Notes: generated by a model not told the origin, from the sequence alone. Counted from the stretch's first letter, positions 4,748 through 31,241 are shown. The stretch: DNA of 32,000 bases from Cupriavidus necator (GCF_016127575.1 NZ_CP066019.1:1980001-2012000), one strand, 5' to 3'. Translations and numbers: made by a program.

Positions 4748-4990
4748 TCAAACAGCGCTAGAGTGCGGGATAGCGGCACCGGAGGACAATCCGGATTTAT
4801 CGAACGGGCCATACGGCCAGGCCGAACGCACGCCAGCCGACCACCCGGTCGGGAACTTCTGCCCGAAGTCGCAGGTCTCCCGGGCCAGCATGGCGAGGGA
4901 CGACACAAGCTTGCTGCGCTGGTCACTCTTGCAGATGGCGGCATCCGCCCGCCACCATGGCGCATCTTCCGGCGCAGGTCGAGGCTTCAT
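4748..4990 (-). CDS. Hypothetical small protein (80 aa), weakly supported
   Basis: ATG 4990 is preceded by GGAGAG with a 6-nt spacer. The central codons are strongly G/C-ending (about 33 of 36 by my count) and overall about 60 of 80. No recognisable motif. It lies 52 nt upstream of, and co-directional with, the Bug gene. Confidence 0.3.
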   Translation of the reverse strand: MKPRPAPEDAPWWRADAAICKSDQRSKLVSSLAMLARETCDFGQKFPTGWSAGVRSAWPYGPFDKSGLSSGAAIPHSSAV

Positions 4991-8763: not shown

Positions 8764-8804
8764 CTGCCGGGCCCCCTCAGGCAGGCCCGGCGCCAGGGCG
8801 GCGC

Positions 8805-9998: not shown

Positions 9999-10126
9999 GG
10001 TGAGCCTCGTTGTCAGGACAGGATCAGATTGTAGGGCGGCACGCCGCCGGGCCGCTGTCACGGAAGGCCGTTCGCACAAGGAACCCCCGACATCTGGTCT
10101 GCAGCCCTTTGCCTGTCGAGCGACAA

Positions 10127-10147
10127 AGTAATCGCATTGCGATTACT
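10127..10147. promoter_or_regulatory. Perfect 21-bp palindrome AGTAATCGCA-T-TGCGATTACT, a candidate operator in the divergent promoter region
   Basis: Read directly: 10-bp arms around a central T at 10137. It lies in the AT-rich 227-bp gap between the divergent starts at 9998 (-) and 10226 (+). It is flanked by the direct repeat ACTAGTATG (10145-10153 and 10188-10196). Confidence 0.5.
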
Positions 10148-10225
10148 AGTATGTGGATTTCACCTATACATATGCTCATGACAATCGACTAGTATGGCTT
10201 CAATCGAGCACGAGGGCACAAGGCG

Positions 10226-11659: not shown

Positions 11660-11678
11660 CGGCAATCAAGGAGCTCGC

Positions 11679-12764: not shown

Positions 12765-12802
12765 TCTGAACCTCTTCACCAGACACCACAAGCAACGACA
12801 CG

Positions 12803-13894
12803 ATGCCGAATTCCAAACTCAAGATTTCCGGGCTGACCAAGCGTTATGGCGACTTCGTCGCGCTGGCCCCGACCGACCTTGAAGTGGCCGAGGGGGAATT
12901 CCTTACCCTCCTGGGCCCTTCGGGCTCGGGCAAGACCACGCTGCTCAGCCTGATCGCCGGGCTGGCCGTGCCGGACGGCGGCCAGCTGCTGATCAATGGC
13001 AAGGACGTGACCTTTGGCGCCCCCTACGAGCGCGATATCGGCATGGTGTTCCAGAACTACGCGCTGTTCCCGCACATGACGATCGCGGAGAACATCGCCT
13101 TCCCGCTGAAGATGCGCCGGGTCGACGCGGCCACGGCCAGGCGCCAGGCACTGGAAGCACTGGAAATGGTCCGCCTGCCCCACGTCGCGGCGCGCTTCCC
13201 GAAGGAACTCTCGGGCGGCCAGCAGCAGCGCATCGCGCTGGCCCGCTGCCTGGTCTACAAGCCATCGATCATCCTGATGGATGAACCGCTGGGCGCCCTG
13301 GACAAGAAGCTGCGCGACCACATGCAGCTGGAGATCAAGCGCATCCACCGCGAGCTGGGCACCACCATCGTCTATGTCACCCACGACCAGGAAGAGGCGA
13401 TGACGATGTCTGACCGCATCTGCCTGATGAACGGCGGCAAGATCGAGCAGCTTGGCACGCCGTCGGACCTGTACTTCCGCCCGCGCACGCTGTTCGTGGC
13501 CGACTTCCTGGGCGAATCGAACCTGTTCGAGGGCACCGTCACGGAAGTGCGCGGCGACCACGTGGAGGTGGCGCTGGCACAGGGCGGCGCCGTCGCCCAC
13601 GCGGTCACCAATGCGCCGGTGGCCGCCGGGGGCAAGGTGCGGGTCATGGTGCGGCCGCAGAACATCGCCATGGCCAACGGCGTCACCGCCGCCAATGCGG
13701 TCAGCGGCAAAGTGCTTGACAGCATGATCACCGGCAGCCTGACCAAGCTGTACGTGGAATCCGATGCCGCCGGCCAGGCCCCGGTGGTGCTGTCCTACCC
13801 CACCTCGATGGGCGCTTCCCGGCATGCGGTCGGGCAGCAAGTCACGCTTACCTGGCAGCGCAGCGACGCTGTCGCCGTCCCGGATTCGCTATGA
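12803..13894 (+). CDS. ABC transporter ATP-binding protein (PotA-like, with C-terminal TOBE-like region)
   Basis: Walker A GPSGSGKTT, signature LSGGQQQR, Walker B IILMDEP, H-loop YVTHD. The stop overlaps the next ATG (ATGA, 13891-13894). Confidence 0.95.
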   Translation: MPNSKLKISGLTKRYGDFVALAPTDLEVAEGEFLTLLGPSGSGKTTLLSLIAGLAVPDGGQLLINGKDVTFGAPYERDIGMVFQNYALFPHMTIAENIAFPLKMRRVDAATARRQALEALEMVRLPHVAARFPKELSGGQQQRIALARCLVYKPSIILMDEPLGALDKKLRDHMQLEIKRIHRELGTTIVYVTHDQEEAMTMSDRICLMNGGKIEQLGTPSDLYFRPRTLFVADFLGESNLFEGTVTEVRGDHVEVALAQGGAVAHAVTNAPVAAGGKVRVMVRPQNIAMANGVTAANAVSGKVLDSMITGSLTKLYVESDAAGQAPVVLSYPTSMGASRHAVGQQVTLTWQRSDAVAVPDSL

Positions 13895-15660
13895 CCGCCG
13901 TCGCCCTGCAACGCCGACCCCTACCCTGGCTGCGGCCCGCCTTGCTGGCCGCGCCGCTGGTGCTCCTGTTCGTGGTGCTGCTGGTCTACCCGGTCGGCCA
14001 GCTGCTGCTGCTGAGCGTCTACAGCGACGGTGCCTTCACGCTGGCCAAGTACCGCCAGCTGTTTGCGTCATCGGTCTACGTCGACGTGATGCTGATCACG
14101 CTGAAGATCTCGCTCTGGACCACGCTGCTCTCCGTGGTCGCCGGTTATCCGGTGGCCTACCTGATCTCCTCGCTGTCAAAGGACAGGAAGGCAAAGTGGC
14201 TGTTCTGGGTACTGCTGTCGTTCTGGACCAGCTTCCTGGTGCGCGCCTTTGCCTGGATCGTGATGCTGGGCCGCAACGGCGTGGTCAACCAGTTGCTGAG
14301 CGCCGCCGGCATCCAGGATGCGCCTTCCAACCTGCTGTACAGCCTCGGCGCCGTGCTGGTGGCGATGGTGCACGCGCTGATGCCGCTGGCGGTGCTGACC
14401 ATGCTGTCGGTGATGGAGAACATCGACCGCAACCTCCCGCGCGCGGCGCTTACGCTTGGGGCACGGCCTGGCACGGCGTTCTGGCGCGTCTACTTCCCGC
14501 TCTCGATGCCGGGCGTGGCGGCCGGCGCCATCATGGTGTTCGTCACCGCCGTCGGCTTCTTTATCGTGCCCGCGCTGCTGGGCGGACGCAAAGAGATCAT
14601 GGTCGCCCAGCTGATCATCGACCAGGTGCAGCAGACCATGAACTGGGGTTTCGCCGGCTCGATCTCGGTGTTGCTGCTGCTGGTCGTGCTGGCGGTGTTC
14701 GCCCTGTATGACAAGGTGCTCGGGCTCTCGTCGATGGCAGGCGGAGCGGAGCAACGCACCCGCTCCGCGGCCGCGCACGATGGCGTGCTGCATCGGCTCG
14801 GTGACAGCGTGCTGGGCGCACTGGGAGCGGTCAGCGACAAGCTGCTGGCACTGGTGCCGCGCGGCCGGCGCGAGCCGCAGCCGGGCGACTCGCTGCCGCT
14901 GCGCACGATCGTGCTGATGGTGCTGCTGTTCCTGAGCGTGCCGGCGCTGCTGATGATCCCGCTGTCGTTCGCCGACAAGTCGGGGCTGAACTGGCCGCCG
15001 CGCGGCTTCACGCTGCAGCACTACCAGGACATGCTCGCCTCGCCGCTGTGGATGCAGGCCGGGCTGCGCTCGCTGCTGGTCGGCCTTGGCGCCGCGGTGC
15101 TGGCGCTGCTGGTCGGCACGCCGGTGGCGTTCCTGCTGGCGCGCTCGCAGATGCGGGGCAAGTCGCTGCTGCTGGCGTTCGTGCTGTCGCCGATCATCAT
15201 CCCGCGCATGATCATCGCGGTGGGGATGTTCTACTTCTTCGCCAGGGTCGGGCTGGTCGGCACCTCGCTCGGTCTGATGATCGGCCACACCGTCATTGCC
15301 GTGCCCTACGTCGTCATGACGATGATGGCGGTGCTGCGCAACTACGACACGCGGCTCGACCTGGCGGCGCAAAGCCTGGGCGCCAGGCCCTGGCAGACGC
15401 TGCGCTACGTGACGCTGCCGATCCTCGCCGCCGGCCTGTTCTCGTCCTTCCTGTTCGCCTTCGCCACCTCGTTCGATGAGCTGACGATCGCCCTGTTTGC
15501 CTCTGGCGGACTGAGCGCCACCCTGCCCAAGCAGTTCTGGGACGAGGTGACGCTGCAGCTTTCACCGGTGATTGCCGCGGTGTCTACCTGCCTGTTCGTC
15601 TTCGTTACCCTCCTGATCACCTGCGCCGAGCGCTTGCGCCGCAAGAGCGCCGGGCGCTGA
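13891..15660 (+). CDS. ABC transporter permease, fused PotB-like plus PotC-like double domain
   Basis: 589 aa with two hydrophobic halves. Each half carries an EAA-type loop (MENIDRNLPRAALTLGARPGTAFWRVYFPL and LRNYDTRLDLAAQSLGARPWQTLRYVTLPI). They are joined by a polar linker (...GGAEQRTRSAAAHDG...RGRREPQPGD...). Confidence 0.9.
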   Translation: MTAVALQRRPLPWLRPALLAAPLVLLFVVLLVYPVGQLLLLSVYSDGAFTLAKYRQLFASSVYVDVMLITLKISLWTTLLSVVAGYPVAYLISSLSKDRKAKWLFWVLLSFWTSFLVRAFAWIVMLGRNGVVNQLLSAAGIQDAPSNLLYSLGAVLVAMVHALMPLAVLTMLSVMENIDRNLPRAALTLGARPGTAFWRVYFPLSMPGVAAGAIMVFVTAVGFFIVPALLGGRKEIMVAQLIIDQVQQTMNWGFAGSISVLLLLVVLAVFALYDKVLGLSSMAGGAEQRTRSAAAHDGVLHRLGDSVLGALGAVSDKLLALVPRGRREPQPGDSLPLRTIVLMVLLFLSVPALLMIPLSFADKSGLNWPPRGFTLQHYQDMLASPLWMQAGLRSLLVGLGAAVLALLVGTPVAFLLARSQMRGKSLLLAFVLSPIIIPRMIIAVGMFYFFARVGLVGTSLGLMIGHTVIAVPYVVMTMMAVLRNYDTRLDLAAQSLGARPWQTLRYVTLPILAAGLFSSFLFAFATSFDELTIALFASGGLSATLPKQFWDEVTLQLSPVIAAVSTCLFVFVTLLITCAERLRRKSAGR

Positions 15661-18619: not shown

Positions 18620-18650
18620 GCGATGCCGGAAACGCCGCCGGCTTCGCTCA
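18617..18650. terminator. Hairpin spanning both convergent stop codons (candidate bidirectional terminator or attenuating structure)
   Basis: TGAGCGA-t-GCCGG-aaacgccg-CCGGC-t-TCGCTCA: 7 + 5 bp with one T/T mismatch. It includes the IclR TGA (18617-18619) and the SDR stop (TCA on the plus strand, 18648-18650). No U-tracts. Confidence 0.3.
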
Positions 18651-19400
18651 GATGGCCCGGCCTCCGTCAACGGGCATGTCGATGCCGGTAAGGAAGCGGG
18701 CACCCGGGCTTGCCAGGAAGACCGCGGCATTGGCCACGTCGGCCGGCTCGCACATTCGCCCCAGCGGTATGGTGGCAACAAAGCGGGCGCGGTTCTCGGC
18801 GGTGTCGGCAACCCCCATGAAGTCCTGCAGCAGCCCGGTCGCCGCCATCACGGGCGAGATCAGGTTGACCCGGATCCCGTGCGCGGCCAGTTCAACAGCC
18901 ATCGATTTCGACATCACGCTCACCGCGCCCTTCGAGCTGTTGTACCAGGTCAGCCCCGGGCGCGGCCGGTGGCTGCCGACCGAGCCGATATTGAGGATCA
19001 CGCCTTTGCCGCGCTGCTTCATCAGCGGCACGACCGCGCGTGCCATGTGGTAGATCGACTTGACGTTGACGGCGAAGACGCGGTCGAAGACCGCTTCGTC
19101 GACTTCCAGCATCGACTGATTCCGATGCGTGGTGCCGGCATTGTTGACGACCACGTCCGGCTCGCCGAAATGGTCGCAGCAGTGCTGCACCGCGGCGTTG
19201 ATCTGCGCCGGGCTGGTGACGTCGCACGGAGCCGCACTGGCATTCGGCCCCAACTCGTCCGCCAGTCTCTGCACGGCATCGCGATCGATATCGGCCAGCA
19301 CGACCTTCGCTCCCGCCTGGATAAAGGCCCGCGCAATCGCGGCGCCAAAGCCACTGCCTGCGCCCGTGACAATGGCAACCTGGTCTGATAGCTCCGACAT
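18648..19400 (-). CDS. Short-chain dehydrogenase/reductase (classical SDR)
   Basis: 250 aa. TGAGSGFG (TGxxxGxG), NNAG and YNSSK (YxxxK). SD GGGAGA upstream. The gene is 9 nt after the ALDH stop. Confidence 0.9.
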   Translation of the reverse strand: MSELSDQVAIVTGAGSGFGAAIARAFIQAGAKVVLADIDRDAVQRLADELGPNASAAPCDVTSPAQINAAVQHCCDHFGEPDVVVNNAGTTHRNQSMLEVDEAVFDRVFAVNVKSIYHMARAVVPLMKQRGKGVILNIGSVGSHRPRPGLTWYNSSKGAVSVMSKSMAVELAAHGIRVNLISPVMAATGLLQDFMGVADTAENRARFVATIPLGRMCEPADVANAAVFLASPGARFLTGIDMPVDGGRAI

Positions 19401-19409
19401 GTCGTCTCC

Positions 19410-20843
19410 CTATTGGTAGTGCTGCACGATGGTCTTGGTGGTGCTCATCTCTTCCAGCGCGAGGAAGCCCTTTTCCCGGCCGTACCCGCTCTTCTTGACG
19501 CCGCCGAAGGGCAGTTCGACCCCACCGCCGGCACCGTAGCAATTGATAAAGACCTGCCCGCTCTGCAGCCGCTGGCTGACCCGCATCTGCCGGCTGCCGT
19601 TCTCGGTCCACACGCCGGCGACCAGGCCGTAGTCGGTGGCATTGGCCAGCCGGATGGCATCCTCTTCGTCCGTGAACGGCATCACCGACAGCACTGGCCC
19701 GAATACCTCGATATTCGCCAGCGCGTGGTCGCGCGGCACCGGACCGAACAGGACCGGCCTGACGAAGTACCCACCCCGGGGCAAATCCGCCGCAAACCCG
19801 CCTTCGGCGATAACCGGCACGCCGCTGTCCCGCGCGGCCTCCACCAGCCCCATCACACGCCGGTACTGCCGCTCGCTGACGATCGGCCCGCAATCCAGAT
19901 CGGCGGCCGGCACGCCCGCCTGCAGGGCACGGAAGGCCTGCGCCACCATGCCGACGAAGCGATCGTAGATGCCTTGCTGCACCAGCAGCCGGCTGCCCGC
20001 CGAGCAGGTCTGCCCGGCGTTCTGGACAATGGCCTTGACCACGGCCGGCACCGCCTTGTCCAGGTCCGCGTCGTCGAAGACGATCTGCGGCGACTTGCCG
20101 CCCAGCTCAAGCACGCAGGGGACGTGGTTGGCCGCGGTTGCCTGCTGCACCAGGGCGCCGGCCTCGGGCGAGCCGGTAAAGGTGGCGAAATGGATGCCGG
20201 GGTTCGATGTCAGCGCGGCGCCTGCCTCCGCGCCATACCCGGTCACCAGGTTGAGGGCTCCGGGCGGCAGCCCGGCTTCCATGGCAAGCTCGGCAATCCG
20301 GATCACGCTCAGGCACGCATCCTCCGATGGCTTCAGCACCGCCGCATTGCCCATCGCCAGTGCCGGCGCCAGCGTGCGCCCCATCATCTGCGCCGGGTAG
20401 TTCCAGGGAATGATGTGGGCGGTCACGCCATGCGGGACGCGCACCACGCTCACGTTGTATCCGTCCAGGTACGGAATCGTCTGACCGTGGACCTTGTCGG
20501 CGGCGCCACCGTAGAACTCGAAGTACCTGGCCACCGCCCTGGCATCGGCGCGCGCGGCCGAGATCGGCTTGCCGGTGTCCTGCGCCTCGATTGCCGCCAG
20601 CTCTTCCGCGTGATCGAGAATGCCTTGTCCCAGCCGCTGCAGGATGCGCCCGCGTTCGGTCGCGGTCTTGCTGCCCCACTCGCCCTGCAAGGCATCCTGC
20701 GCCGCGCTCACCGCCTGCTGCACATCCGCGGCGCGGCCGCGGCTGATCTTCGCAAACGCCATGCCGTCACTGGGATCGATCACGTCGATGGTCTCGCCAT
20801 CGATGGCGCCGAGCCATTTCCCTCCGATGAGTAACGTCTTCAC
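19410..20843 (-). CDS. NAD(P)-dependent aldehyde dehydrogenase
   Basis: 477 aa with a GTG start at 20843 and SD GGAG 7 nt upstream. ELGGKSP (catalytic Glu region) and GQTCSAGSR (catalytic Cys region). Confidence 0.95.
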   Translation of the reverse strand: MKTLLIGGKWLGAIDGETIDVIDPSDGMAFAKISRGRAADVQQAVSAAQDALQGEWGSKTATERGRILQRLGQGILDHAEELAAIEAQDTGKPISAARADARAVARYFEFYGGAADKVHGQTIPYLDGYNVSVVRVPHGVTAHIIPWNYPAQMMGRTLAPALAMGNAAVLKPSEDACLSVIRIAELAMEAGLPPGALNLVTGYGAEAGAALTSNPGIHFATFTGSPEAGALVQQATAANHVPCVLELGGKSPQIVFDDADLDKAVPAVVKAIVQNAGQTCSAGSRLLVQQGIYDRFVGMVAQAFRALQAGVPAADLDCGPIVSERQYRRVMGLVEAARDSGVPVIAEGGFAADLPRGGYFVRPVLFGPVPRDHALANIEVFGPVLSVMPFTDEEDAIRLANATDYGLVAGVWTENGSRQMRVSQRLQSGQVFINCYGAGGGVELPFGGVKKSGYGREKGFLALEEMSTTKTIVQHYQ

Positions 20844-20950
20844 CCGCCGCTCCTGAACAGCACATCTATCGTCACCGCGGCCACTCCCGGCCTGTGCGCC
20901 TCGCGCAGGCCAGCGGTACCGCCTCAGCCCATGGAAATCGGTCTGCTCCC

Positions 20951-22051
20951 CTACTGGCTCCGCGCAAGCGAGCCCGGCGACTCCGACTCCTTCATGAACT
21001 CCGCGTCGTTGTAGTGATAGAGATCGTCCAGGTAGGGCACGAAGAAGTCATAGAACGAGCGCGAGTCATACCTGATCTCGTCCCCGGGCCTGACGCATTC
21101 CGGAATCGGCCCGACATTGGCGTCATCGTCCGGGTAGAAGAAGAAGGTCAGCGCATAGCGCTTCATCGGCGGATTGACCACGCGGTGCGGCGTGGCGATG
21201 AAGCGGTCGTTGGACAGGCGGTTCAGGATCTGGCCGGTGTTGACGATCAGCGCGTCCTTGACGTAGCTGACACTCAGCCACTCGCGCGACGGGGTCATGA
21301 CCTGCAGGCCGGGCACCGGGGTCATCGGCAGCAAGGTCAGGAAGCTGCCGTCGGAATGCGGCGCCAGCGCGTACTGGCCCTCGTCGAGGTGTTCCTCAGG
21401 ATGGTAGTAGGCGCAGCGCTGGTAGTATTCCGGCGCCTTGAACATGCTGTCGAAATAGTCCGCGCGCAGCTCCAGCGCCCTGGCGTAGATGGGCAGGAAC
21501 TTCAGCGCCAGGCGCTCCATCGACAACTGGTAGTCGTACAGCGTCTGGCGGAACTCCGGCAGGCTCTCCGGCCACTGGTTCAGGCCACGATGACGCACAT
21601 TGGCCCGCACCTTGGGGTCGTCCTCGGTGCGGTTGCGCATGAAAAGCCAGGCCGAATTGGTATCCTTCTTGGTGTTCTCCGCAATCTTGGTCCGGATCGC
21701 CTCGGACTTCAGGATGGATGCCTTCGGCGGCAGGTAGCCCTGGTGGTGATAGCCGACCCGGTGCCTGAGCTTCTCTTCCATCGGGATCTCGAAGAGCTTG
21801 GCGGTCTGGCGGAACGACTCGTCGATCAGGGCGTGCGGGATGCCGTGATTGATCACCGAGAAGAACCCCAGCTCCTCCTGGATCAGCTTGACGTCGGCGG
21901 CCAGTTGCTCAAGCGCGCCGGGCACGCCAGCCAGGTAGGGGCCCAGGTCGAGAATGGGCAGGTCGGTCCCGCGCGCTATGGCTGCGCGCACCTGCTCTGA
22001 GGGAGCGGCCTGCAACGGCTGGGCCGCAGCCCGGGATGGCATTGCTGTCAT
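20951..22051 (-). CDS. 2-oxoglutarate/Fe(II)-dependent oxygenase (isopenicillin-N-synthase-like family)
   Basis: 366 aa. N-terminal DIOX_N-like 'LPILDLGP...GFFSVINHGIP'. Facial triad H-x-D (APHSDGSFLTLL) and distal His (ATPHRV), followed by KRYALTFF. SD TAGGAGA upstream. Confidence 0.85.
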   Translation of the reverse strand: MTAMPSRAAAQPLQAAPSEQVRAAIARGTDLPILDLGPYLAGVPGALEQLAADVKLIQEELGFFSVINHGIPHALIDESFRQTAKLFEIPMEEKLRHRVGYHHQGYLPPKASILKSEAIRTKIAENTKKDTNSAWLFMRNRTEDDPKVRANVRHRGLNQWPESLPEFRQTLYDYQLSMERLALKFLPIYARALELRADYFDSMFKAPEYYQRCAYYHPEEHLDEGQYALAPHSDGSFLTLLPMTPVPGLQVMTPSREWLSVSYVKDALIVNTGQILNRLSNDRFIATPHRVVNPPMKRYALTFFFYPDDDANVGPIPECVRPGDEIRYDSRSFYDFFVPYLDDLYHYNDAEFMKESESPGSLARSQ

Positions 22052-22147
22052 GATCGGTGTCTCCTATGGTTTGACTGATACGGGGAACGTGCTGCCTTGC
22101 CCGCCGATACGGTGGATCGGCTTGATCAAACTTCCACTGCACACATC

Positions 22148-23392
22148 TCACTTCCAGAACGCGCATCGGGATTCCGCCCTGGAAGCAAAGGCCTGCTCCC
22201 CGGGAATCCGCTGCACCTCCTTGTAGTAGTCCCACGGCTGGCGTGATTCAGCCGGGCTCTTCACTTCCATCAGGCGCAGATCGTGCACCATGCGTCCGTC
22301 TCCGCGGATATAGCCGTTCTGGGCGTACATATCGTTGATGCGGGTGGCCTTCATGCCGGCGATCACCTTCGCGGCGGCGTCCGTGCCGGCAGCCTTCACC
22401 GCGCGCAGATAGTGCTGTGTCGCCGAGTAGCTGGCCGCCTGCATGCTGGTGGGCTTCTTCTTCATCTTGTCCTGGAACCGCCCTGCCCACTTCCTTGAGT
22501 CATCGCTCTGGTCCCAGTACCAGGCTTCGGTCAGGGTGATGCCCTGGGTCAGTCCCAGGCCGAGGGCGTGCACATCCGTGATGAACAGCATCAGCCCCGC
22601 GATCTTCATCGACCTGGAGATGCCGAATTCGTTGGCCGCCTTGATCGCATTGATGGTGTCGCCGCCGCCGTTGGCCAGCCCCAGGACCTGGGCCCGCGAT
22701 GCCTTGGCCTGCAGCAGGAAGGAGGAAAAATCGGAGGCGGACAAAGGATGCCGGACGCTGCCCAGGACCTTGCCGCCGCCGGCGGTGACCACCGCCGCGG
22801 TCTCCTTCTCCAGCGAGGCGCCAAAGGCATAGTCCACCGTCAGGAAGTACCACGACCGTCCGCCCTGCCTGGTCATGGCGGCACCGGTGCCCCTGGCCAG
22901 GGCCACGGTGTCATAGAGATAGTGGATGGTATAGGGCGAGCACTCCTCATTGGTCAGCTGCGCCGCCACGCCGCCGGTCACCATGACCGGGCGCTGCTTT
23001 TCCGCTGCGACCTTGGCCACCGCCAGGCTGGTGCCGGAACTGGGCCCGCTGATGATCATGTCCACCCCTTGCCGGTCGAACCACTCGCGGGCCTGCGTGG
23101 CCGCGGTATCGGGCTTGCCGGCATGGTTGGCGTGGACCAGCTCGATGCGCTTGCCGTTGATCTCGCCGCCGGCATCCGCAATCGCCATCCGCACTGCCTC
23201 GACCAGGCCGTTGCCGCCCATGTCAGAGTAAAGCCCTGACATGTCCGCCAGCACGCCGATCTTCACCGACTCGTCGCTGAACTGGGCCGCAGCCGGTCCG
23301 GCCAGGGCCAGGCCGGCCATGCCCAGCAACGCAGCCGGCCACCTGATCCGCCTTGCCCGGCCTTCAGGCACTCGTTTTCTATTTATCCGCAT
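22148..23392 (-). CDS. ABC-type periplasmic binding protein, Leu/Ile/Val (LivJ)-type PBP1 family; orphan (no adjacent permease or ATPase)
   Basis: ATG 23392 with strong SD GGAGGGGAG. Signal 'WPAALLGMAGLALAGPAAAQ', then 'VKIGVLADMSGLYSDMGGNG', typical of this family. Confidence 0.9.
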   Translation of the reverse strand: MRINRKRVPEGRARRIRWPAALLGMAGLALAGPAAAQFSDESVKIGVLADMSGLYSDMGGNGLVEAVRMAIADAGGEINGKRIELVHANHAGKPDTAATQAREWFDRQGVDMIISGPSSGTSLAVAKVAAEKQRPVMVTGGVAAQLTNEECSPYTIHYLYDTVALARGTGAAMTRQGGRSWYFLTVDYAFGASLEKETAAVVTAGGGKVLGSVRHPLSASDFSSFLLQAKASRAQVLGLANGGGDTINAIKAANEFGISRSMKIAGLMLFITDVHALGLGLTQGITLTEAWYWDQSDDSRKWAGRFQDKMKKKPTSMQAASYSATQHYLRAVKAAGTDAAAKVIAGMKATRINDMYAQNGYIRGDGRMVHDLRLMEVKSPAESRQPWDYYKEVQRIPGEQAFASRAESRCAFWK

Positions 23393-23426
23393 CTCCCCTC
23401 CTGTCGACAGATTGCACTGCATCCGT

Positions 23427-23762
23427 TCACGCCCGCATCCCGCCTGGTGGCGCTGCCTCTGCCCCGGCCGGGCTGGCCAATGCGGACAGGTGCGCTTTCC
23501 TGAGCCTGCGCAACTGCCCCGGATTTGCCCGCACGCTTTCCACCGTTTCGAAATAGCGCCACAGTTCCCCGTCTATGTCGGCACGCAGCCTGATCGCGTC
23601 CAGCAGGCGGATTACCGCCAGCCGCTCGTGCCGCATCCTGACGCTGTGCCGCAGCAGCGCCAGCGCGGCCGCCCGCACATCTGGCACCTGGTGCGCCGGG
23701 GTTTCGGCGCGGCCGGCGGTGCGGATGGTTTTCTTGAGTGCCTTGATTCTTTCGCGCGACAT
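23427..23762 (-). CDS. Hypothetical Arg-rich, predicted helical protein (111 aa)
   Basis: ATG 23762, 37 nt after the meaB stop (MSRERIKALKKTIRTAGRAE...). The frame mostly uses G/C-ending codons. No recognisable motif. The ORF-track N-terminal extension to 23876 overlaps meaB. Confidence 0.45.
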   Translation of the reverse strand: MSRERIKALKKTIRTAGRAETPAHQVPDVRAAALALLRHSVRMRHERLAVIRLLDAIRLRADIDGELWRYFETVESVRANPGQLRRLRKAHLSALASPAGAEAAPPGGMRA

Positions 23763-23799: not shown

Positions 23800-24702
23800 C
23801 TACGCGCCAATGGCTTTGCCCAGCTGGGTCCAGGCCTGGGACAGCTGCTGCCGCAGTGGCAGGGCCAGGAATTCATCGTCCTGATTGGCGACCACCTCGG
23901 CGACCTGGACCTCGAGCAGGCGCTTCAGCCGGTAGCGGGCCCGCTGCCTGCGCAAGGCCGCCTGCCGCCCGGCGGCAGCCAGCCACGCCTGGTGCCGGTC
24001 GATGGCATCGGACAGAGCACTGACCGAGGCGGGACGCGATGCCGCGGTCAGCAGCACCGGCGGAACCCACGCGCCCTGCGCATGCCGCGTGATGGCGCCG
24101 ATGCGCCGGATATCCGTGGCCATGCGCTGGGCGCCCGGCAGGTCTGCCTTGTTGACGACGAAGATATCGGCCATTTCCATGATTCCCGCCTTCATCGCCT
24201 GCACCATGTCCCCACTGTCCGGCAACAACAGCAGCACCAGCGTATCGACCTGCGCGCGCGCCGCGTATTCCGTCTGGCCGACACCGACCGTTTCCAGCAG
24301 CACCTCGGCAAAGCCGAAGTCATCCATCGCATCCAGCATCTCCGGGAGGTTGTCAGCCAGGCCATCCGAGGTGCCGCGCGAGCCCAGCGAGCGGATGTAG
24401 AGTTCCGGGCTGGTGCCAAGCTCATCCATGCGGATCCGGTCCCCGAGGATGGCGCCGCCGCTCCTGGGACTGCTGGGATCCACCGCGAGCACGCCGAGGC
24501 GCCCCTTAGACGCGCGCGCCATGGCGAGGTGGCCCAACAGGGTGCTCTTGCCCGCGCCGGGCGCACCGGTCATGCCGATGCGCCTGGCCGGATGCAGCGG
24601 GGTATCCCGCTGCGCTCGCTGCACCAGCTCCGCGGGCGTGGCGTTGGCGATGCGGGTCAGCGTCCGGCCCAGCGCGCCCCGGTCGAGCGAGGACGGGTTC
24701 AT
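23800..24702 (-). CDS. meaB: MeaB/ArgK-type G-protein chaperone of B12-dependent mutases
   Basis: 300 aa. P-loop GMTGAPGAGKST, ETVGVGQ (switch region) and NKAD (VVNKADL). The start overlaps the CoA-transferase stop (ATGA, 24699-24702). Confidence 0.9.
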   Translation of the reverse strand: MNPSSLDRGALGRTLTRIANATPAELVQRAQRDTPLHPARRIGMTGAPGAGKSTLLGHLAMARASKGRLGVLAVDPSSPRSGGAILGDRIRMDELGTSPELYIRSLGSRGTSDGLADNLPEMLDAMDDFGFAEVLLETVGVGQTEYAARAQVDTLVLLLLPDSGDMVQAMKAGIMEMADIFVVNKADLPGAQRMATDIRRIGAITRHAQGAWVPPVLLTAASRPASVSALSDAIDRHQAWLAAAGRQAALRRQRARYRLKRLLEVQVAEVVANQDDEFLALPLRQQLSQAWTQLGKAIGA

Positions 24703-25826
24703 GGCGCCACCTTGCCCAGGACTTCATCGCGATGCTCGTCAAGCAACGGCGGCAGGCCATAGCTCGGCTCGTAATCCGAGAAGCGGATCGGGCTTGCCAC
24801 CGCGCGCAGCGGCAACTCGCCCTGCCCCAGCGCCACGATCAGCGAGCGCGCAGCGGTGATGTCGCTGCCCAACGCCTCATTCAATGTGCCCACCTCCGAC
24901 ACCACCACGCCCTGTGGCCCCAGGCGCCGCACCCATTGCGCCGCCGGGGCGGAGCGCAGCACCTCGGCAATCTCGGGTATCACCTCGGCACGGTGCGCGC
25001 GGCGGCCCGCCATGGTGGCAAAGCGCGGATCCGTGGTCCACGCCGGCCGGTCCACCTCCTCGCAGAAGGTCTTCCAGAAGCGGTCATGGGTGATGAAAAG
25101 CGTCAGCCAGCCCTTGGCGGTCGGGAAGATCTGTGCGGGCACCAGGTAGGGATGCGACGAGTCGGCCAGCCGCTCGATGGTCTCCCCCGCGTTCAGGGCG
25201 GCCCCGGCAAGGTAGTTGAGCTGTGACAGCATCACGTCGTACATGGCCACGTCCACCTGCCCACCCCGCCCCTGCACGATCTTCGCAAGCAAGCCCACTG
25301 CGGCAACCAGGCCAGCCGAGTTGTCCACCGCCGAGTAGCCGGCCTTGGTGGGCGGTGCCGCCGGATCTCCCGTCAAGGCCATGACCCCGGTCATGGCCTG
25401 GATCACATAGTCGTATGCCGGGCTGTCCGAATAGGGGCCGTCAAGGCCGTAGCCGGTGACGGCCACGCAGACCAGCTGCTCATTCCACTGGCGCAGCACC
25501 TCGTAGGTGAGCCCGAGCTTGCGCACCGCCGCCGGACGCAGGTTGGTCACCAGCGCATGGGATTGCCGCAACAGCCGCCCGAGTGCCAGCGTCCCTGCCT
25601 CGCTGGCGAGGTCGAGCACCACGCTTTTCTTGTTGCGGTTCAGGCTGGCAAAGTAGGCATTGTGCGGGCCGATGAAATGGGGGCTGATGGTGCGGCCGAT
25701 ATCACCTTCCGGGGTCTCGATCTTGATCACCTCGGCGCCCAGGTCGGTCATCATCAGCCCGCAGTAGGGCCCGGCAAGCATGTGGCCGACTTCGATGATG
25801 CGGATGCCGGCAAGGGGCGCGCTCAC
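24699..25826 (-). CDS. Family III CoA-transferase (CaiB/BaiF/Frc-like)
   Basis: 375 aa with a GTG start at 25826 overlapping the upstream stop (GTGA). N-terminus 'PLAGIRIIEVGHMLAGPYCGLMMTDLGAEVIKIE' is typical of family III. Confidence 0.9.
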   Translation of the reverse strand: MSAPLAGIRIIEVGHMLAGPYCGLMMTDLGAEVIKIETPEGDIGRTISPHFIGPHNAYFASLNRNKKSVVLDLASEAGTLALGRLLRQSHALVTNLRPAAVRKLGLTYEVLRQWNEQLVCVAVTGYGLDGPYSDSPAYDYVIQAMTGVMALTGDPAAPPTKAGYSAVDNSAGLVAAVGLLAKIVQGRGGQVDVAMYDVMLSQLNYLAGAALNAGETIERLADSSHPYLVPAQIFPTAKGWLTLFITHDRFWKTFCEEVDRPAWTTDPRFATMAGRRAHRAEVIPEIAEVLRSAPAAQWVRRLGPQGVVVSEVGTLNEALGSDITAARSLIVALGQGELPLRAVASPIRFSDYEPSYGLPPLLDEHRDEVLGKVAP

Positions 25827-26239
25827 GCCAGGCTCCTGCCCAGATTGCTGACCACCGTCTCCAGCGGCATGTCGGCGGTAAACACAGCGGTGACCCCCAG
25901 CGTCCGCAGGAAGGGCTGGTCCTCGGCGGGAATGGTGCCGCCGACAAAGACCTTGATGTCATGCGCATTGAGTTCGCGCAGCTGGGCGATGACCTCCCCC
26001 ACCAGCTCCTTGTGGCTGCCAGACAGGATGCTCAGGCCGACTGCGTCAACGCCCTCGTCGACAGCGACCTGCGCGATCTGCAATGGGCTGCGGCGCAGGC
26101 CGGTGTAGATGACTTCGGCACCGGCATTGCGCAACGTCAGCGCGATGATCTTCGCGCCGATATCGTGGCCGTCCAGGCCGGGCTTGCCAATCAGTATCCG
26201 CTTGCCGGACAACGCGCCGGCGGCTTGCAAGGTGTTCAT
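25823..26239 (-). CDS. B12-binding small subunit of a split acyl-CoA mutase
   Basis: ATG 26239 gives 138 aa. Cobalamin-binding DxHxxG motif (GLDGHDIGAK) and 'GLSILSGSH'. ATGA overlap with the large-subunit stop (26236-26239). Confidence 0.9.
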   Translation of the reverse strand: MNTLQAAGALSGKRILIGKPGLDGHDIGAKIIALTLRNAGAEVIYTGLRRSPLQIAQVAVDEGVDAVGLSILSGSHKELVGEVIAQLRELNAHDIKVFVGGTIPAEDQPFLRTLGVTAVFTADMPLETVVSNLGRSLA

Positions 26240-27861
26240 AGGTTCACCGGCTCCTTGAATTCGCCCCATTGCTGCTTCAGGCAAGCCACCATCTCTCCGA
26301 CCGTGGCATAGGCATGGCAGCAATCCACCAGATAGGGCATGACGTTCTCGCTGTCCCTGGCGGCCGCGGCCGTCAGCCGGGCCAGCGATGCGTCCACGGC
26401 TGACTGCTGGCGCGTATCCAGCACGCGCTGGAACTTCTCCAGGGCCCGCTGCGCGACGGTCGGATCCAGCGTGAACACCTCGCCGACCCGGATCTCCTCC
26501 CCCTCCTTCCTGAAGTGGTTCTGGCCGACGATGACGGTCTGGCCGGAATCGGTGTCCAGCTTGCGCTGCAGGCCCCGCTCGGCCAGCCGCATCTGGATCC
26601 AGCCATCCTCGATGGCAGGGATCACGCCGCCGTACGCCTCGATCTCGTCCATCACGTGGACGATCTGCGCCTCCATCCGGTCGGTGTGCTGCTCCAGGAA
26701 GTAGCTGCCGCCCAGCGGATCGACGGTCCGGCCGATGCCGCTTTCATAGGCGATGATCTGCTGCGTGCGCACGGCCAGCTCGGCGGAGAACTCGGTCGGG
26801 ATCTGGAAGGCCTCGTCGAAGGCACAGGTGAAGATCGACTGGGCCCCGCCCAGCACCGCGGCCATGGTCTCCACCGCCACCCGCACCACGTTGTTGTAAG
26901 GCTGGGGCGCCACCAGCGACGATCCCCCGCAGACGACCCCGAAGCGGAAATGCTGGGCCTTCGCATCCCTGGCGCCATAGCGCTCCTTCATCAGGCGCGC
27001 CCAGAGCCGGCGGCCCGCCCGGAACTTGGCGATCTCGTCGAAGAAGTCCATGTGCACGTAGAAGAAGAAGGACAGGCGCTTGGCAAACTTCTCCACGTCG
27101 CCGCCCCGGGCACGCAGCTCGTCCACATAGGCCAGTCCGTTGGCCAGGGTGTACGCCATTTCCTCGGCCGCGGTGGCCCCCGCGTCGCGCACATGGGCGC
27201 CGGCGATGCTGATGGGGTTGAAGCGTGGCGAGACCTCGTTCGAATAGAGGATCGAATCGGCGATCAGCCGCATCGACGGCCGCACCGGGAAGATCCAGGT
27301 GCCGCGCGCGACGTACTCCTTCAGGATGTCGTTCTGGATCGTGCCGGTCAGCTTGCTGCGCGGCACGTTCTGCTTGTCTGCGACGGCCAGGTACATGGCA
27401 TAGACGATCGCGGCCGTACCGTTGATGGTGAACGAGGTCGAGATCCTTGACAGGTCCAGGCCGTCGAACAGGATCTCGGCCTCGCTCAGGTTCGACAGCG
27501 ACACGCCGACCTTGCCGATTTCCGGCCGGGCCATCGGGTGGGTCGGATCGAAGCCGCATTGGGTCGGCAGGTCCAGCGCCACTGAAAGGCCGGTCTGGCC
27601 CTGCGCCAGCAGGAACTTGTAGCGCTCGTTGGACTCCTCCGCGGTGCCGAATCCCGAGTACTGGCGGATGGTCCACAGCCGGCCCTGGTAGCCATCGGGA
27701 AAGATGCCGCGCGTGAACGGGTAGCTGCCGGGGTCCCCGATCTTGTCCGGATGGACCGCCGCCGCATCCACGCTCGCCGGAACCTCGATGCCGCTCTGGC
27801 TGACCGGCCGCAAGGCCGGCTCGGCGCCCGCATCCGTCATGGACAGCTCAGCGTTGCTCAT
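26236..27861 (-). CDS. Adenosylcobalamin-dependent acyl-CoA mutase, large (substrate-binding) subunit; methylmalonyl-CoA-mutase family, divergent
   Basis: ATG 27861 (SD GGAGG upstream; ATGA overlap with the crotonase stop) gives 541 aa. Family motifs YPFTRG, WTIRQYSGFGT, GLSVALDLPT, GTIQNDILKEY, PYNNVVR. Confidence 0.92.
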   Translation of the reverse strand: MSNAELSMTDAGAEPALRPVSQSGIEVPASVDAAAVHPDKIGDPGSYPFTRGIFPDGYQGRLWTIRQYSGFGTAEESNERYKFLLAQGQTGLSVALDLPTQCGFDPTHPMARPEIGKVGVSLSNLSEAEILFDGLDLSRISTSFTINGTAAIVYAMYLAVADKQNVPRSKLTGTIQNDILKEYVARGTWIFPVRPSMRLIADSILYSNEVSPRFNPISIAGAHVRDAGATAAEEMAYTLANGLAYVDELRARGGDVEKFAKRLSFFFYVHMDFFDEIAKFRAGRRLWARLMKERYGARDAKAQHFRFGVVCGGSSLVAPQPYNNVVRVAVETMAAVLGGAQSIFTCAFDEAFQIPTEFSAELAVRTQQIIAYESGIGRTVDPLGGSYFLEQHTDRMEAQIVHVMDEIEAYGGVIPAIEDGWIQMRLAERGLQRKLDTDSGQTVIVGQNHFRKEGEEIRVGEVFTLDPTVAQRALEKFQRVLDTRQQSAVDASLARLTAAAARDSENVMPYLVDCCHAYATVGEMVACLKQQWGEFKEPVNL

Positions 27862-28637
27862 TGGGCCCTCCTGGAGAGGATGCCCTCGGCAGCGTTCCAA
27901 TGGTCCGCATGGAGCCAGGTATGCAACAGTTGCTGCTGCTCGATGGTGCGGGCAGCGTCATGCGACTCGCCGCGCCGGCTGGCCGCGGTCTGCGCCTTGA
28001 TGCCGCGCAGCACCTGCGGGGCGCAGCCCAGCAGCGGTTGCAGGAAGGCGTGGATGTCCTTGCCGGCGGGTCCGTCCGTGACCACCGCATCGGCCAAGCC
28101 CCACTGCAGCGCCTGCTGCGCATCGACAAGCTCGCAACGGCTCATCATGCGCATGGCCCGCGCCGCGCCGACGATCCGGCACAGGTCGGGGCCGCCGCCC
28201 CAGGCCGAGGTGATGGCCAGCCGCGCCTGGATAAAGCCGATGCGCGCGCTCGCCGACTGCAGCCGCATGTCGCAGGCCAATGCCAGCTCGGCGCCGCCGC
28301 CGATGGCATCGCCGTTCAGGTAGGCCAGCACCGGCAGCGGGCAGTCGCGCACCGCATCCAGGGCACCGCGCGCCTGCTCGCTCATGGCCAGCGTAGCCTC
28401 CCGGTCGCGCACGCCGGACAGCTCGACCAGATCGCCGCCTGCCGCAAAGAAGCGCTGGCCGGCGCCGGTCAGCACGATGCAGCGCACCCCGGGCTGCGCC
28501 GCCGCGGCGCTCACCACCTGCGCCAATCCCGCCAGCACGTGGCGGGCCAGCGCATTGTGTTTCTGCGCCCGGTCGATCGTGATCCATAGCGCGCCGCCGG
28601 CGCGCTCCTCCACGGTGATGTCCTTAGCTGCGTACAC
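27858..28637 (-). CDS. Crotonase-superfamily (enoyl-CoA hydratase/isomerase/decarboxylase-fold) protein
   Basis: 259 aa with a GTG start at 28637 and SD GGGAGG 9 nt upstream. Oxyanion-hole segments 'FFAAGGDL' and 'NGDAIGGGAELALACD'. Confidence 0.9.
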   Translation of the reverse strand: MYAAKDITVEERAGGALWITIDRAQKHNALARHVLAGLAQVVSAAAAQPGVRCIVLTGAGQRFFAAGGDLVELSGVRDREATLAMSEQARGALDAVRDCPLPVLAYLNGDAIGGGAELALACDMRLQSASARIGFIQARLAITSAWGGGPDLCRIVGAARAMRMMSRCELVDAQQALQWGLADAVVTDGPAGKDIHAFLQPLLGCAPQVLRGIKAQTAASRRGESHDAARTIEQQQLLHTWLHADHWNAAEGILSRRAQ

Positions 28638-28815
28638 GCTGTTCTGCCTCCCGACTGGTTTGAATGGATGCTAGGCGGGGGTTTATTCCGGCACAAGAAC
28701 GCTAGTTCCGTATCTCGAACAAATGAGTACAATGCAGCGGAATACGGCCACGCCGCCGGCGTTTGTTCAGCCGGCCGAATTTCTTCCAGCCAGGTGCAAG
28801 CGAAAGGAGGGGACT

Positions 28816-29574
28816 ATGTCCGGCGTCACGGTGACCGCCATCGAGCGGGTGATCGATATCCTTGAAGCCTTCCAGGCAAACCAGCGGCCGCTGTCGCTGA
28901 CGGAGCTGGCGGAGGCGATAGACATTCCCAAGAGCACCTGCCACGCCATCGTCTCGACCCTGATGGCACGCGGCTACCTCTATTCCCTCACCCGTCCGCG
29001 CGCGCTCTATCCCACCCGGCGCATCTATGACGTGGCGCGCGACATCACCGAGAAAGACCCGTTCGTGGAACGCGCCACGCCGGTGCTGGAGCGGCTGCGC
29101 GACGCCACGCGGGAAACCGTGATCCTTGGCAAGCGGCAGGGTGAATCCGTGATCTACCTGCAGGTCATCGAAGGCGTGCACGCGATCCGCTACACGGCCA
29201 AGCCGGGGGAGTTCAAGCCGCTGCACTCGAGCTCCATCGGCAAGGCCATCCTGGGCGGCCTGAAGGAGCAGGAGCTGCGCGGCTGGCTGGCCGGCCGGGA
29301 ACTGCCCGCCATCACCATGGCCACCAAGACCGACCCAGAGGCCCTCGTGCGCGACATCCAGGAAAGCCGGCGCGCCGGCTACTTCGTCACGCGCGGCGAG
29401 AACGTCAGCGACGTCTGGGCCGTCGCGACCTTCCTCACGTTGAACAATGAGACCCTGGCCATTGCCGTGGCAGGGCCGAAGAACCGGATGGAGACGTGCA
29501 TCCCTGAGTGCGCGAAAGTGCTGGTGGCCACCTGCAGCTTCCTGTCGCGGCAGGTGGCAGGCAACCACGCGTGA
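28816..29574 (+). CDS. IclR-family transcriptional regulator (divergent from the mutase operon)
   Basis: ATG 28816 preceded by AAGGAGGGG. wHTH 'IERVIDILEAFQANQRPLSLTELAEAIDIPKSTCHAIVSTLMARGYL' plus an effector domain. Confidence 0.88.
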   Translation: MSGVTVTAIERVIDILEAFQANQRPLSLTELAEAIDIPKSTCHAIVSTLMARGYLYSLTRPRALYPTRRIYDVARDITEKDPFVERATPVLERLRDATRETVILGKRQGESVIYLQVIEGVHAIRYTAKPGEFKPLHSSSIGKAILGGLKEQELRGWLAGRELPAITMATKTDPEALVRDIQESRRAGYFVTRGENVSDVWAVATFLTLNNETLAIAVAGPKNRMETCIPECAKVLVATCSFLSRQVAGNHA

Positions 29575-30248: not shown

Positions 30249-31241
30249 TCATTCGCTGGCCGTAAAGCCCGAAGCCGCGACCACCGGTCCCCACTGCATG
30301 CGCTGCGCCTGGATGAGCTTGCGCAGGGCATCCCCCGGCTTGCCGTTCATCTCCATGCCCAGCGCCGACATCTTGTCGCGCACCACGGGATCCTTGACGG
30401 CGTCGAGCAGCGCTTTCTCGATCCTCGCCACCGTAGCCGGCGGCGTCCCCGCCGGCACAAAGGCCGAGTACCAGCCTGACGCCGTCTCGAAACCCGGCGC
30501 GCCCGCCTCCGCCAGCGTTGGCACATCAGGCAGCAGCGCCGACCGGCGGGTCCCGGTGACGCCGAGGAAACGGATCTTGCCCGCCCGGTACAGCTCCATC
30601 TGCCCCCCCACCGCATCGATACCCAGCGGCAGCGTGCCGCCGATCTCATCGGTCAGCATCATGACGGCGCCGCGATAGGCAGTGGGCAGCAACGGCACGC
30701 CAATCGACTTGCTGAGCGACAGCACCCCGAAATGAATGCTGCCGCCGAGCGTGACCAGCCCGACACCGCCCTTGTCCGGGTTGCGCTTCACCCATGCCAG
30801 GTATTCCGGCATGGTCCGATAGGGCTGGTTGACGCTGGCGGACGCCACCAGCGGCACGTCGGCCAGGTAGGCGACCGGAACCAGGTCCTTGTCGGGGTCA
30901 TAGGCCAGGCGCTTGTAGGTCAGCGGAAAGATGGTGAACGGCGGCGCGGGCGAGATCAGCACCGTCTTGCCGTCCGGCGGCGCGCGTTTGACGTTCTCCA
31001 GCGCCAGCCGCGCCGATGCGCCGGGGCGGTTCTCGACCAGGACAGGCGTATCGAGCGAAACACGCAGCTTTTCAGCAAGCGCGCGCGCGAAGATGTCCAG
31101 CGCGCCACCGGCCGCGAAGCCGACCACGATGCGCACGGGCGCGTCGCCGCTGGCGGGGGCAGCCATGGCAGGAACGGCACTGGCACCCAGGGCCAATGCC
31201 AGCGCGGCGGCCAGCCGTCGCAAGGGGTTCGGAAATAGCAT
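30249..31241 (-). CDS. Bug-family (TctC-like) substrate-binding protein
   Basis: 330 aa. Signal 'LAAALALALGASAVPAMA', 'PVRIVVGFAAGGALDIFARALA...VLVENRPGASA'. SD GGAG upstream. Confidence 0.9.
   Translation of the reverse strand: MLFPNPLRRLAAALALALGASAVPAMAAPASGDAPVRIVVGFAAGGALDIFARALAEKLRVSLDTPVLVENRPGASARLALENVKRAPPDGKTVLISPAPPFTIFPLTYKRLAYDPDKDLVPVAYLADVPLVASASVNQPYRTMPEYLAWVKRNPDKGGVGLVTLGGSIHFGVLSLSKSIGVPLLPTAYRGAVMMLTDEIGGTLPLGIDAVGGQMELYRAGKIRFLGVTGTRRSALLPDVPTLAEAGAPGFETASGWYSAFVPAGTPPATVARIEKALLDAVKDPVVRDKMSALGMEMNGKPGDALRKLIQAQRMQWGPVVAASGFTASE

Follow-up and report, generated by a model that had tools for sequence, protein, structure and literature searches.

The 32,000-nucleotide stretch of Cupriavidus necator DNA analysed here (NZ_CP066019.1, 1980001-2012000; hereafter the window, with positions counted from its first letter) carries a compact operon, the central gene of which encodes the large, substrate-binding subunit of a predicted adenosylcobalamin (AdoCbl)-dependent acyl-CoA mutase. 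The order of the core operon is a crotonase-like protein, the mutase large subunit, its small cobalamin-binding subunit, a family III CoA-transferase and a MeaB-type chaperone, usually with an IclR-family regulator alongside (Table 1). This order is kept in essentially every related locus that has enough flanking DNA (about 80 species-level loci). All four internal junctions in the window (24699-28637) are 4-nt start/stop overlaps, reading ATGA or GTGA, which suggests translational coupling. The small-subunit gene overlaps both of its neighbours in this way, and it adjoins the large-subunit gene in the related loci with enough flank. The start of the large subunit is taken to be the ATG at 27861, in a 4-nt overlap with the stop codon of the upstream gene; the TTG at 27900, chosen by an open reading frame (ORF) finder, was rejected. 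A 541-residue C. necator database protein is 100% identical to the product over its full length.

The large subunit belongs to the acyl-CoA mutase superfamily. It scores 632.6 bits against the superfamily model TIGR00641 (NCBIfam cut-off 303.8), and PF01642 is present on all of its homologues. Its scores against the equivalog models lie far below their cut-offs, at 542.5 bits against 876 for the methylmalonyl-CoA mutase (MCM) model NF006944 and 264.6 bits against 1500 for IcmF. The best sequence match in the PDB is HcmA, the large subunit of 2-hydroxyisobutyryl-CoA mutase (HCM; 4r3u, E 9e-149), and the MCMs come next.

Residue equivalences were established using HMMER alignments to PDB chains and MAFFT alignments, and are expressed relative to Propionibacterium shermanii MutB. 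Tyr68 (in RQYSGF) is equivalent to Tyr89 and Arg186 (in YVARGTW) to Arg207, and the carboxylate clamp of MCM is thus kept. The equivalents of His244 (here His223), Gln197, Arg283 and Glu370 (here Glu350) are likewise all kept. Ala222-His223 stands in the place of Tyr243-His244 (AGAH vs SGYH), and the segment 306-RFGVVCGGS-314 in the place of 326-RTHSQTSGW-334, which amounts to the changes H328G, S329V, Q330V, T331C, S332G and W334S. A first-pass annotation, made from the sequence by eye, had listed Tyr68, Arg186 and His223 as retained and Tyr243 and the RTHSQTSG segment as replaced; the alignments bear this out, with every residue number correct. It had described the change as one of three positions. 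These three are real, but the remodelling is much wider and takes in seven more clade-specific positions, Y75F, T77D, M78G, F117L, H122Q, R123C and N366C (Phe54, Asp56, Gly57, Leu96, Gln101, Cys102 and Cys346 in the numbering of the C. necator protein), which we take to line the substrate and CoA channel.

Tyr243, His328, Gln330, Thr331 and Asn366 are kept in the MCMs of P. shermanii, human and E. coli (ScpA) and also in HcmA, according to the MAFFT alignment, and the HMMER alignment to the PDB chain of the M. tuberculosis MCM has both the SGYH and RTHSQTSGW motifs. The sequence H-x-Q-T is common to the MCM-, HCM- and isobutyryl-CoA mutase (ICM)-type sequences compared, as the first-pass annotation had supposed. 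The failure to reach the equivalog cut-off, together with the loss of four residues common to all the MCMs compared, supports the view that the large subunit is not an ordinary MCM, as far as can be judged from sequence.

The same alignments bear on the idea that the enzyme is a homologue of HcmAB, or of isobutyryl- or pivalyl-CoA mutase (PCM), and rearranges a monocarboxylic acyl-CoA. HcmA is the best PDB match by both sequence and fold, and its large and small subunits are split, as they are here. However, the residues that define HCM, Ile90/Asp117/Gln208 (Ile/Asp/Gln in 4r3u), are absent, the C. necator protein having Tyr/Ala/Arg, and the Phe/Gln pair of the ICM and PCM type is absent as well, being replaced by Tyr68/Arg186. 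Representatives of the Phe/Gln type cluster separately. An invariant Tyr/Arg clamp would moreover have no role with an uncharged substituent, and we regard a monocarboxylic substrate as highly improbable.

An alignment of 207 sequences, spanning 56-100% identity, defines the clade to which the large subunit belongs. Tyr68, Arg186, Ala222, His223, Gly308, Val309, Val310, Cys311, Gly312 and Gly313 are invariant in all 207 sequences, as is Glu350, and the further clade-specific positions (75, 77, 78, 117, 122, 123 and 366 of MutB) are invariant or nearly so. Ala222 and the core positions of RFGVVCGG are thus fixed throughout. Such invariance, down to 56% identity, means that the pocket residues are due neither to chance nor to sequencing error. 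In a neighbour-joining tree the proteobacterial clade has a bootstrap value of 100, and of 99 when an actinobacterial sister group is included; nodes deeper than the clade and its sister are at about 1%, and the tree singles out no known subfamily as the closest by descent. The clade is, to judge from its sequences, a distinct specificity group with well-supported monophyly.

Patterns derived from the large subunit matched 346 stretches in 185,579 species-representative genomes. The best 80 of these are 70-90% identical to the large subunit; their hosts are mostly Comamonadaceae, Alcaligenaceae and Burkholderiaceae, but some Alphaproteobacteria and one Marinobacter are also among them. Relatives of 70% identity or above thus occur in at least 80 species-level genomes, mainly within the Burkholderiales. 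Some of its members are on plasmids or chromids, in Diaphorobacter, Paraburkholderia, Marinobacter and Sulfitobacter. The actinobacterial sister is 56% identical and has the pocket signature common to the clade, with Ser or Ala at position 243, and its loci also have an ECH-family gene, a family III CoA-transferase and MeaB near the mutase. A sister form (56% identity) from a cultured actinomycete lies on the 1.47-Mb linear plasmid of Streptomyces sp. N50 (10001-13905), in a record that carries no annotation. It has Ser at 243 and the strand R-F-G-C-V-A-G-G-A, and the genes after it encode a small subunit and a family III CoA-transferase (54% identity). Two other mutases on Streptomyces plasmids (L095 and L096) are of the MCM type.

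A wider survey covered the 150 best representatives of clusters formed at 50% identity (P0121-P0270). The Tyr89/Arg207 clamp is kept in 76 of them. The MCM set Tyr243/His328/Gln330 is present in 39 of these 76, with Asn366 in 36 of the 39; a further 17 keep Tyr243 but have lost His328/Gln330, and the remaining 20 have lost Tyr243. None of these 20 keeps His328/Gln330, compared with 39 of the 56 that have Tyr243 (Fisher 1.5e-8, a value that ignores phylogeny), and Asn366 splits along the presence of Tyr243 in the same way. This pattern of joint loss suggests that Tyr243, His328, Gln330 and Asn366 form one co-varying unit that marks true MCMs. His328/Gln330 are absent from 37 of the 76, and the clade is therefore one of many unstudied lineages rather than a lone oddity. 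Most of the clamp-retaining representatives without His328/Gln330 carry the label 'methylmalonyl-CoA mutase' in their source records. With the MCM tetrad missing from about half of the clamp-retaining representatives, these automatic labels are probably wrong. One representative, P0144, was considered as an example of ethylmalonyl-CoA mutase (ECM) and rejected, since it belongs to an unrelated clade from Elusimicrobia.

An AlphaFold2 model of the large subunit has a mean pLDDT of 87.7 and a pTM of 0.89, and superposes on HcmA (4r3u) and on substrate-bound MCM (4req) with TM-scores of 0.92-0.93. The eight strands of the barrel are at residues 64-68, 91-96, 141-145, 172-175, 218-220, 264-269, 307-311 and 342-345. 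All of the signature residues are located within these strands or just beyond their C-terminal ends. In MCM the CoA ester runs down the axis of the barrel at the C-terminal ends of the strands. The replacement of Tyr243, His328, Gln330 and Asn366 by Ala, Gly, Val and Cys, together with Leu for Phe117 and Gly for Met78, should enlarge the cavity beside the reacting carbons and make it more hydrophobic.

It might be argued that the protein is nevertheless a functionally ordinary MCM in an unusual scaffold, the operon serving to convert methylmalonate and succinyl-CoA to methylmalonyl-CoA and then to succinyl-CoA. The clamp is kept, as are the equivalents of His244, Gln197, Arg283 and Glu370, the source annotation is 'methylmalonyl-CoA mutase', and a three-enzyme scheme of this kind closes neatly on succinate. 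The Y243A mutant of MCM also keeps some activity. Against this stand the shortfall against the MCM equivalog model (542 bits vs 876) and the fact that four residues common to all the MCMs compared (and to 36-39 of the 39 MCM-type representatives) are not simply lost but replaced and fixed differently, as if under extreme purifying selection: they stay invariant even where overall identity has dropped to 56%. The protein also belongs to a separate clade with a conserved operon of its own. A search for an alignment in which Ala, Gly and Val are normal at these positions in confirmed MCMs gave none, either among the four confirmed MCMs or among the 39 MCM-type representatives. We therefore regard ordinary MCM function as improbable. 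The suggestion of the first-pass annotation that this is a clade of its own and no ordinary MCM holds up well, given the NF006944 score, the bootstrap value of 100 and an operon unlike the contexts of MCM genes. Its more specific proposals, that Ala222 would make room for an extra substituent at C2 and that the substrate would be a C2-disubstituted malonyl-CoA or a substituted succinyl-CoA, are more tentative, since they depend on assumed structural roles.

The other proteins of the operon have been further analysed, and their positions are collected in Table 1 with those of the flanking genes.

Table 1. Genes of the mutase operon of C. necator and of its surroundings. Positions are those of the window.
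Feature	Position	Strand	Length	Basis
MeaB-type G-protein chaperone (AdoCbl loading)	23800-24702	-	300 aa	TIGR00750, 243.4 bits (cut-off 240.75)
Family III (CaiB/BaiF) CoA-transferase	24699-25826	-	375 aa	PF02515
Small cobalamin-binding subunit	25823-26239	-	138 aa	TIGR00640, 129 bits (cut-off 57)
Mutase large subunit (substrate-binding TIM barrel)	26236-27861	-	541 aa	TIGR00641 match, PDB matches, AlphaFold2 model
Crotonase-superfamily protein	27858-28637	-	259 aa	Sub-threshold NCBIfam matches only
IclR-family regulator, divergent	28723-29574	+		Pfam HTH_IclR and IclR_C on orthologs; NCBIfam matches (BhcR, PcaR/PcaU, KdgR)
Small conserved ORF (MSRERIKALKK...)	23490-23762	-	ca. 91-110 aa	tblastn; fills the 378 bp that separate MeaB from the ABC binding protein
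Module A (accessory, directly downstream of the operon)	18648-23422	-		Pfam assignments
Module A: ABC substrate-binding protein	22148-23422	-		PDB 3i09 match, E 1.6e-156
Module A: IPNS/EFE-type 2-oxoglutarate-Fe(II) oxygenase	20951-22051	-		Best PDB match ethylene/succinate-forming enzyme, E 4e-36
Module A: aldehyde dehydrogenase	19410-20843	-		Pfam
Module A: short-chain dehydrogenase/reductase (SDR)	18648-19400	-		Pfam

The small subunit has the base-off/His-on motif DxHxxG, in the form DGHDIG. The MeaB protein has an intact P-loop (GAPGAGKST), and its position in the operon is conserved. Across the loci numbered L001-L086 the large subunit is 70-90% identical, compared with 40-78% for the crotonase-like protein, 53-84% for the CoA-transferase, 48-77% for MeaB and 42-82% for the IclR protein. 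On a plasmid of Marinobacter sp. M3C (8141-13802) a gene for cob(I)yrinic acid a,c-diamide adenosyltransferase comes after MeaB; the operon is bracketed there by IS5, IS630 and IS21 elements, which suggests that it moves as a unit.

The most unusual of the partners is the crotonase-like protein. Both oxyanion-hole motifs are kept, as is Glu117 (equivalent to Glu144 of the crotonases), while the second catalytic glutamate (Glu164) is replaced by Gln137, a change seen in the alignment with the 3-hydroxypropionyl-CoA dehydratase 5zai. The glutamine is present in 81 of 84 aligned sequences, the actinobacterial sister included, and Glu117 in all 84; of the 84, 83 are orthologs and the other is E. 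coli ScpB, with Pro at the Gln137 position. The protein is 26% identical to ScpB and has Gly and Trp/Ala at the positions of His66 and Tyr140 of that enzyme. Because Gln replaces the second catalytic Glu, the crotonase-like protein is not a standard hydratase. A single acid/base residue next to an intact oxyanion hole would fit a decarboxylation, an epimerisation or an isomerisation, and not the canonical hydration. We propose that it may be a decarboxylase or an epimerase for a malonyl-type product of the mutase. The pairing of mutase and crotonase is seen elsewhere. On the contig of P0149 (JGI 3300050821), a clamp-retaining mutase with Ala243 is followed by a 537-residue MeaB-crotonase fusion, which supports a recurring partnership of mutase and crotonase, and by a CoA-transferase of the AcetylCoA_hydro (ScpC) type. 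This locus is embedded in an aromatic ring-cleavage cluster with a Rieske dioxygenase, an extradiol dioxygenase, hydrolases and a P450.

The CoA-transferase, present in 72 of 86 loci, has sub-threshold NCBIfam matches to succinate-glutarate, oxalate and mesaconate CoA-transferases. Its nearest PDB chains are formyl-CoA transferase, YfdE, SUGCT and Rv3272, and nearly all of these are dicarboxylate enzymes. It is proposed to activate the free acid.

The IclR gene adjoins the operon in 58 of the 86 loci (42-82% identity), and its product is probably the regulator of the operon. What follows MeaB is usually a carboxylate importer: TctC in 45 loci, MFS in 15, TRAP (DctPQM) in 9, and TAXI-TRAP in Sulfitobacter. 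Many genomes carry the operon on its own, with just a transporter. By tblastn, the small ORF of Table 1 has a counterpart in the corresponding place in 11 other loci (32-50% identity), annotated as 'hypothetical protein' in Diaphorobacter. Module A accompanies the core operon in about 21 of the 86 loci. In about 17 loci an alternative, here called module B, takes its place, with an IclR protein, a flavin mononucleotide (FMN)-dependent dehydrogenase (FMN_dh), TctC, a TauD-type oxygenase and an RraA-like protein. From its gene content, module A could make the dicarboxylate from an imported precursor. Which of the two modules is present varies with the genome, and the nearest solved structures reveal little about either; together they support no more precise a substrate than 'an organic acid, probably a dicarboxylate'.

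The window also contains four TctC (Bug-family) binding proteins (2169-3173, 3691-4965, 5178-6173 and 30249-31241), an AtuA-family gene (6212-7567) and an acyl-CoA dehydrogenase (8805-10079); elsewhere, none of these genes accompanies the mutase operon. A scan of positions 1-32000 against Rfam gave no match at the gathering threshold, whether to a cobalamin riboswitch or to another family. A possible link to arylmalonate was rejected as a coincidence: a gene of the arylmalonate decarboxylase family (PF17645; 1118-1861) is located 8 kb upstream of the operon in a single locus, from Variovorax (L001), and is absent from all the others.

On the basis of these observations, the best explanation is that the large and small subunits (26236-27861 and 25823-26239) form an active two-subunit AdoCbl-dependent acyl-CoA mutase of a distinct specificity clade, although this is a prediction from sequence. 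The apparatus for the rearrangement appears intact, with the clamp, the thioester-carbonyl His, the adenosyl-ribose Glu, the DxHxxG subunit and the MeaB chaperone all present. Since the Tyr/Arg carboxylate clamp is retained, a dicarboxylyl-CoA is the natural reading of the substrate, and since the wall of the pocket is replaced and a larger hydrophobic cavity is expected, we infer that the enzyme interconverts a substituted succinyl-CoA and a substituted malonyl-CoA. It is likely that the enzyme is a dicarboxylyl-CoA mutase and that its specificity is for a compound other than methylmalonyl-CoA.

We hypothesise that the operon functions as follows. An importer (TctC, TRAP, TAXI or MFS, and an ABC system in the C. 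necator window) would take up the free acid. The family III CoA-transferase would form the CoA ester without the use of ATP. The mutase would then rearrange the carbon skeleton between the substituted succinyl and substituted malonyl forms. Finally, the single-Glu crotonase-like enzyme would act via a thioester enolate, the most likely reaction being the decarboxylation of a substituted malonyl-CoA to an ordinary acyl-CoA, on the pattern of the scpA-argK-scpB-scpC (Sbm) operon of E. coli. That operon (PMC5512728) is the functional precedent for the scheme, and IaaL/IaaGH (PMC8360864) and MatB/MatQ/ActD (PMC5719088) are precedents for mutases of bulky dicarboxylyl-CoAs. Taken as a whole, this scheme of import, CoA activation, rearrangement and probable decarboxylation of a substituted dicarboxylate is the explanation that we favour, by a modest degree; decarboxylation in the direction drawn, which is argued by analogy, is put forward only tentatively.

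Several points weigh against the scheme. The roles of Tyr243, His328, Gln330 and Asn366 are assumed from the MCM structures, and the case for a larger pocket combines residue sizes with the same assumed roles. The mutase could accept plain methylmalonyl-CoA. The crotonase-like protein shares only 26% identity with ScpB and does not have His66 or Tyr140, so that decarboxylation is a matter of analogy and not of homology. Family III 'CoA-transferases' include racemases and intramolecular transferases. Modules A and B, varying as they do between genomes, point to no single compound.

The properties of the crotonase-like protein also allow the flux to be drawn in reverse. An imported substituted malonate (dimethyl-, ethyl-, or other alkyl- or aryl-) would be converted to a substituted succinate or succinyl-CoA, with the crotonase-like protein acting as a 2-epimerase or a proofreading enzyme, and the cycle would be closed and free of ATP, because the mutase product would hand its CoA to the next substrate via the family III transferase. 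One acid/base residue with an intact oxyanion hole suits the exchange of an alpha proton as well as it suits decarboxylation. An epimerase would have a clear purpose, since the characterised mutases take only the (2R) epimer and pathways of the ECM type need an epimerase (PMC5719088, PMC5512728). Module B could carry the substituted succinate on to a 2-oxo acid, by way of its TauD-type oxygenase, FMN-dependent 2-hydroxyacid dehydrogenase, RraA-like decarboxylase/aldolase and TctC. However, the known methylmalonyl- and ethylmalonyl-CoA epimerases have the VOC fold and are not crotonases, and in the many genomes where the operon stands alone with a transporter a substituted succinate would have no obvious fate. 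Flux in this direction is considered unlikely.

A bolder version of the favoured scheme is that the clade represents a new specificity for branched or quaternary-carbon dicarboxylates that are refractory to ordinary beta-oxidation (candidate pairs would be 2,2-dimethylsuccinyl-CoA and isopropylmalonyl-CoA, 3-methylsuccinyl-CoA and dimethylmalonyl-CoA, or an aryl- or alkyl-succinyl-CoA), that the three enzymes form an ATP-independent, CoA-recycling cycle of import, rearrangement and decarboxylation, and that the single-Glu crotonase is a new type of substituted-malonyl-CoA decarboxylase. In this complete form it is speculative and rather doubtful. If true, the cycle for branched dicarboxylates would be one worked example from a large hidden radiation of clamp-retaining mutases.

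No assignment of function for the clade was found in papers (few of those covered being from subscription journals), in curated hidden Markov models (NCBIfam has only generic ones) or in the names given by the PGAP annotation pipeline, and the operon is not mentioned in a paper on C. necator fitness on volatile fatty acids. The clade thus appears to be unstudied: its fold and chemistry are known, whereas its pocket and operon are apparently new. The known specificities of acyl-CoA mutases are few, namely MCM, ICM/IcmF, ECM, HCM and PCM, plus the genetically inferred IaaGH and MatB/ActD, and each newly found specificity has opened up a pathway and provided a tool for carbon-skeleton engineering. 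The present clade is widespread, its pocket residues are fixed, and its operon is compact and mobile, being on plasmids or flanked by insertion sequences in some hosts. Because it is present in C. necator, a genetically tractable industrial organism, the question of its substrate is directly testable.

It remains to compare the C. necator system with those already known. The MCMs (MutB, Sbm/ScpA and human MMUT; EC 5.4.99.2) share with it the TIM barrel (TM-scores of 0.92-0.93), the Tyr89/Arg207 clamp, the His244, Gln197, Arg283 and Glu370 equivalents, the DxHxxG AdoCbl domain and the MeaB-type chaperone. They differ in that they are only 38-46% identical, their alpha chain is fused where the C. 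necator enzyme is split, their operon contexts are unlike the present one, and their Tyr243, His328, Gln330, Thr331 and Asn366 are Ala, Gly, Val, Cys and Cys in the C. necator protein. HcmAB (4r3u) is the closest solved relative (about 45-49% identity, TM-score 0.93) and likewise has split large and small subunits. HcmA, however, has Ile90/Asp117/Gln208, for a hydroxy-monocarboxylic substrate, along with Tyr243, the HxQT motif and Asn366. In the C. necator protein Tyr/Ala/Arg stand in the place of Ile90/Asp117/Gln208, and Tyr243, HxQT and Asn366 are gone.

Three further systems were compared by description. Ecm/MeaA, MatB/MatQ and ActD resemble the proposed enzyme as mutases that convert an alkyl-malonyl-CoA to an alkyl-succinyl-CoA. 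Ecm is a fused single chain. All of them differ in their surroundings, which are assimilatory or biosynthetic clusters that also encode crotonyl-CoA carboxylase/reductase and an epimerase; ccr, mcd and epimerase genes are absent from both the window and the approximately 80 related loci. MatB/MatQ and ActD have been proposed as hexylmalonyl-CoA mutases, MatB/ActD being split enzymes of the HCM subclass (PMC5719088). The IaaGH protein of anaerobic indoleacetate degradation in Aromatoleum is a split B12-dependent phenylsuccinyl-CoA/benzylmalonyl-CoA mutase; the family III transferase IaaL supplies its substrate, and a decarboxylation comes after it (PMC8360864). Here too a split mutase adjoins a family III CoA-transferase, a likeness of description and not of compared sequence. 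The differences are that the iaa cluster has the acyl-CoA dehydrogenase IaaF and the CoA ligase IaaB where the C. necator operon has the crotonase-like protein, none of the iaa cluster genes (IaaF, IaaB and so on) adjoining the operon in the window or the related loci, and that the hosts of the present clade are mainly aerobic Burkholderiales.

The nearest parallel in the composition of the operon is the 'sleeping-beauty' operon of E. coli, scpA-argK-scpB-scpC, which encodes a succinate-to-propionate cycle (PMC5512728). Its mutase, G-protein chaperone, crotonase-fold enzyme and CoA-transferase lie side by side. The transferase is of the PF02515 family in C. necator and of the ScpC/AcetylCoA_hydro family in E. 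coli, the C. necator crotonase is without His66 and Tyr140 of ScpB, the mutase pocket is remodelled and the order of the genes is different. In both species, all four functions are encoded together.

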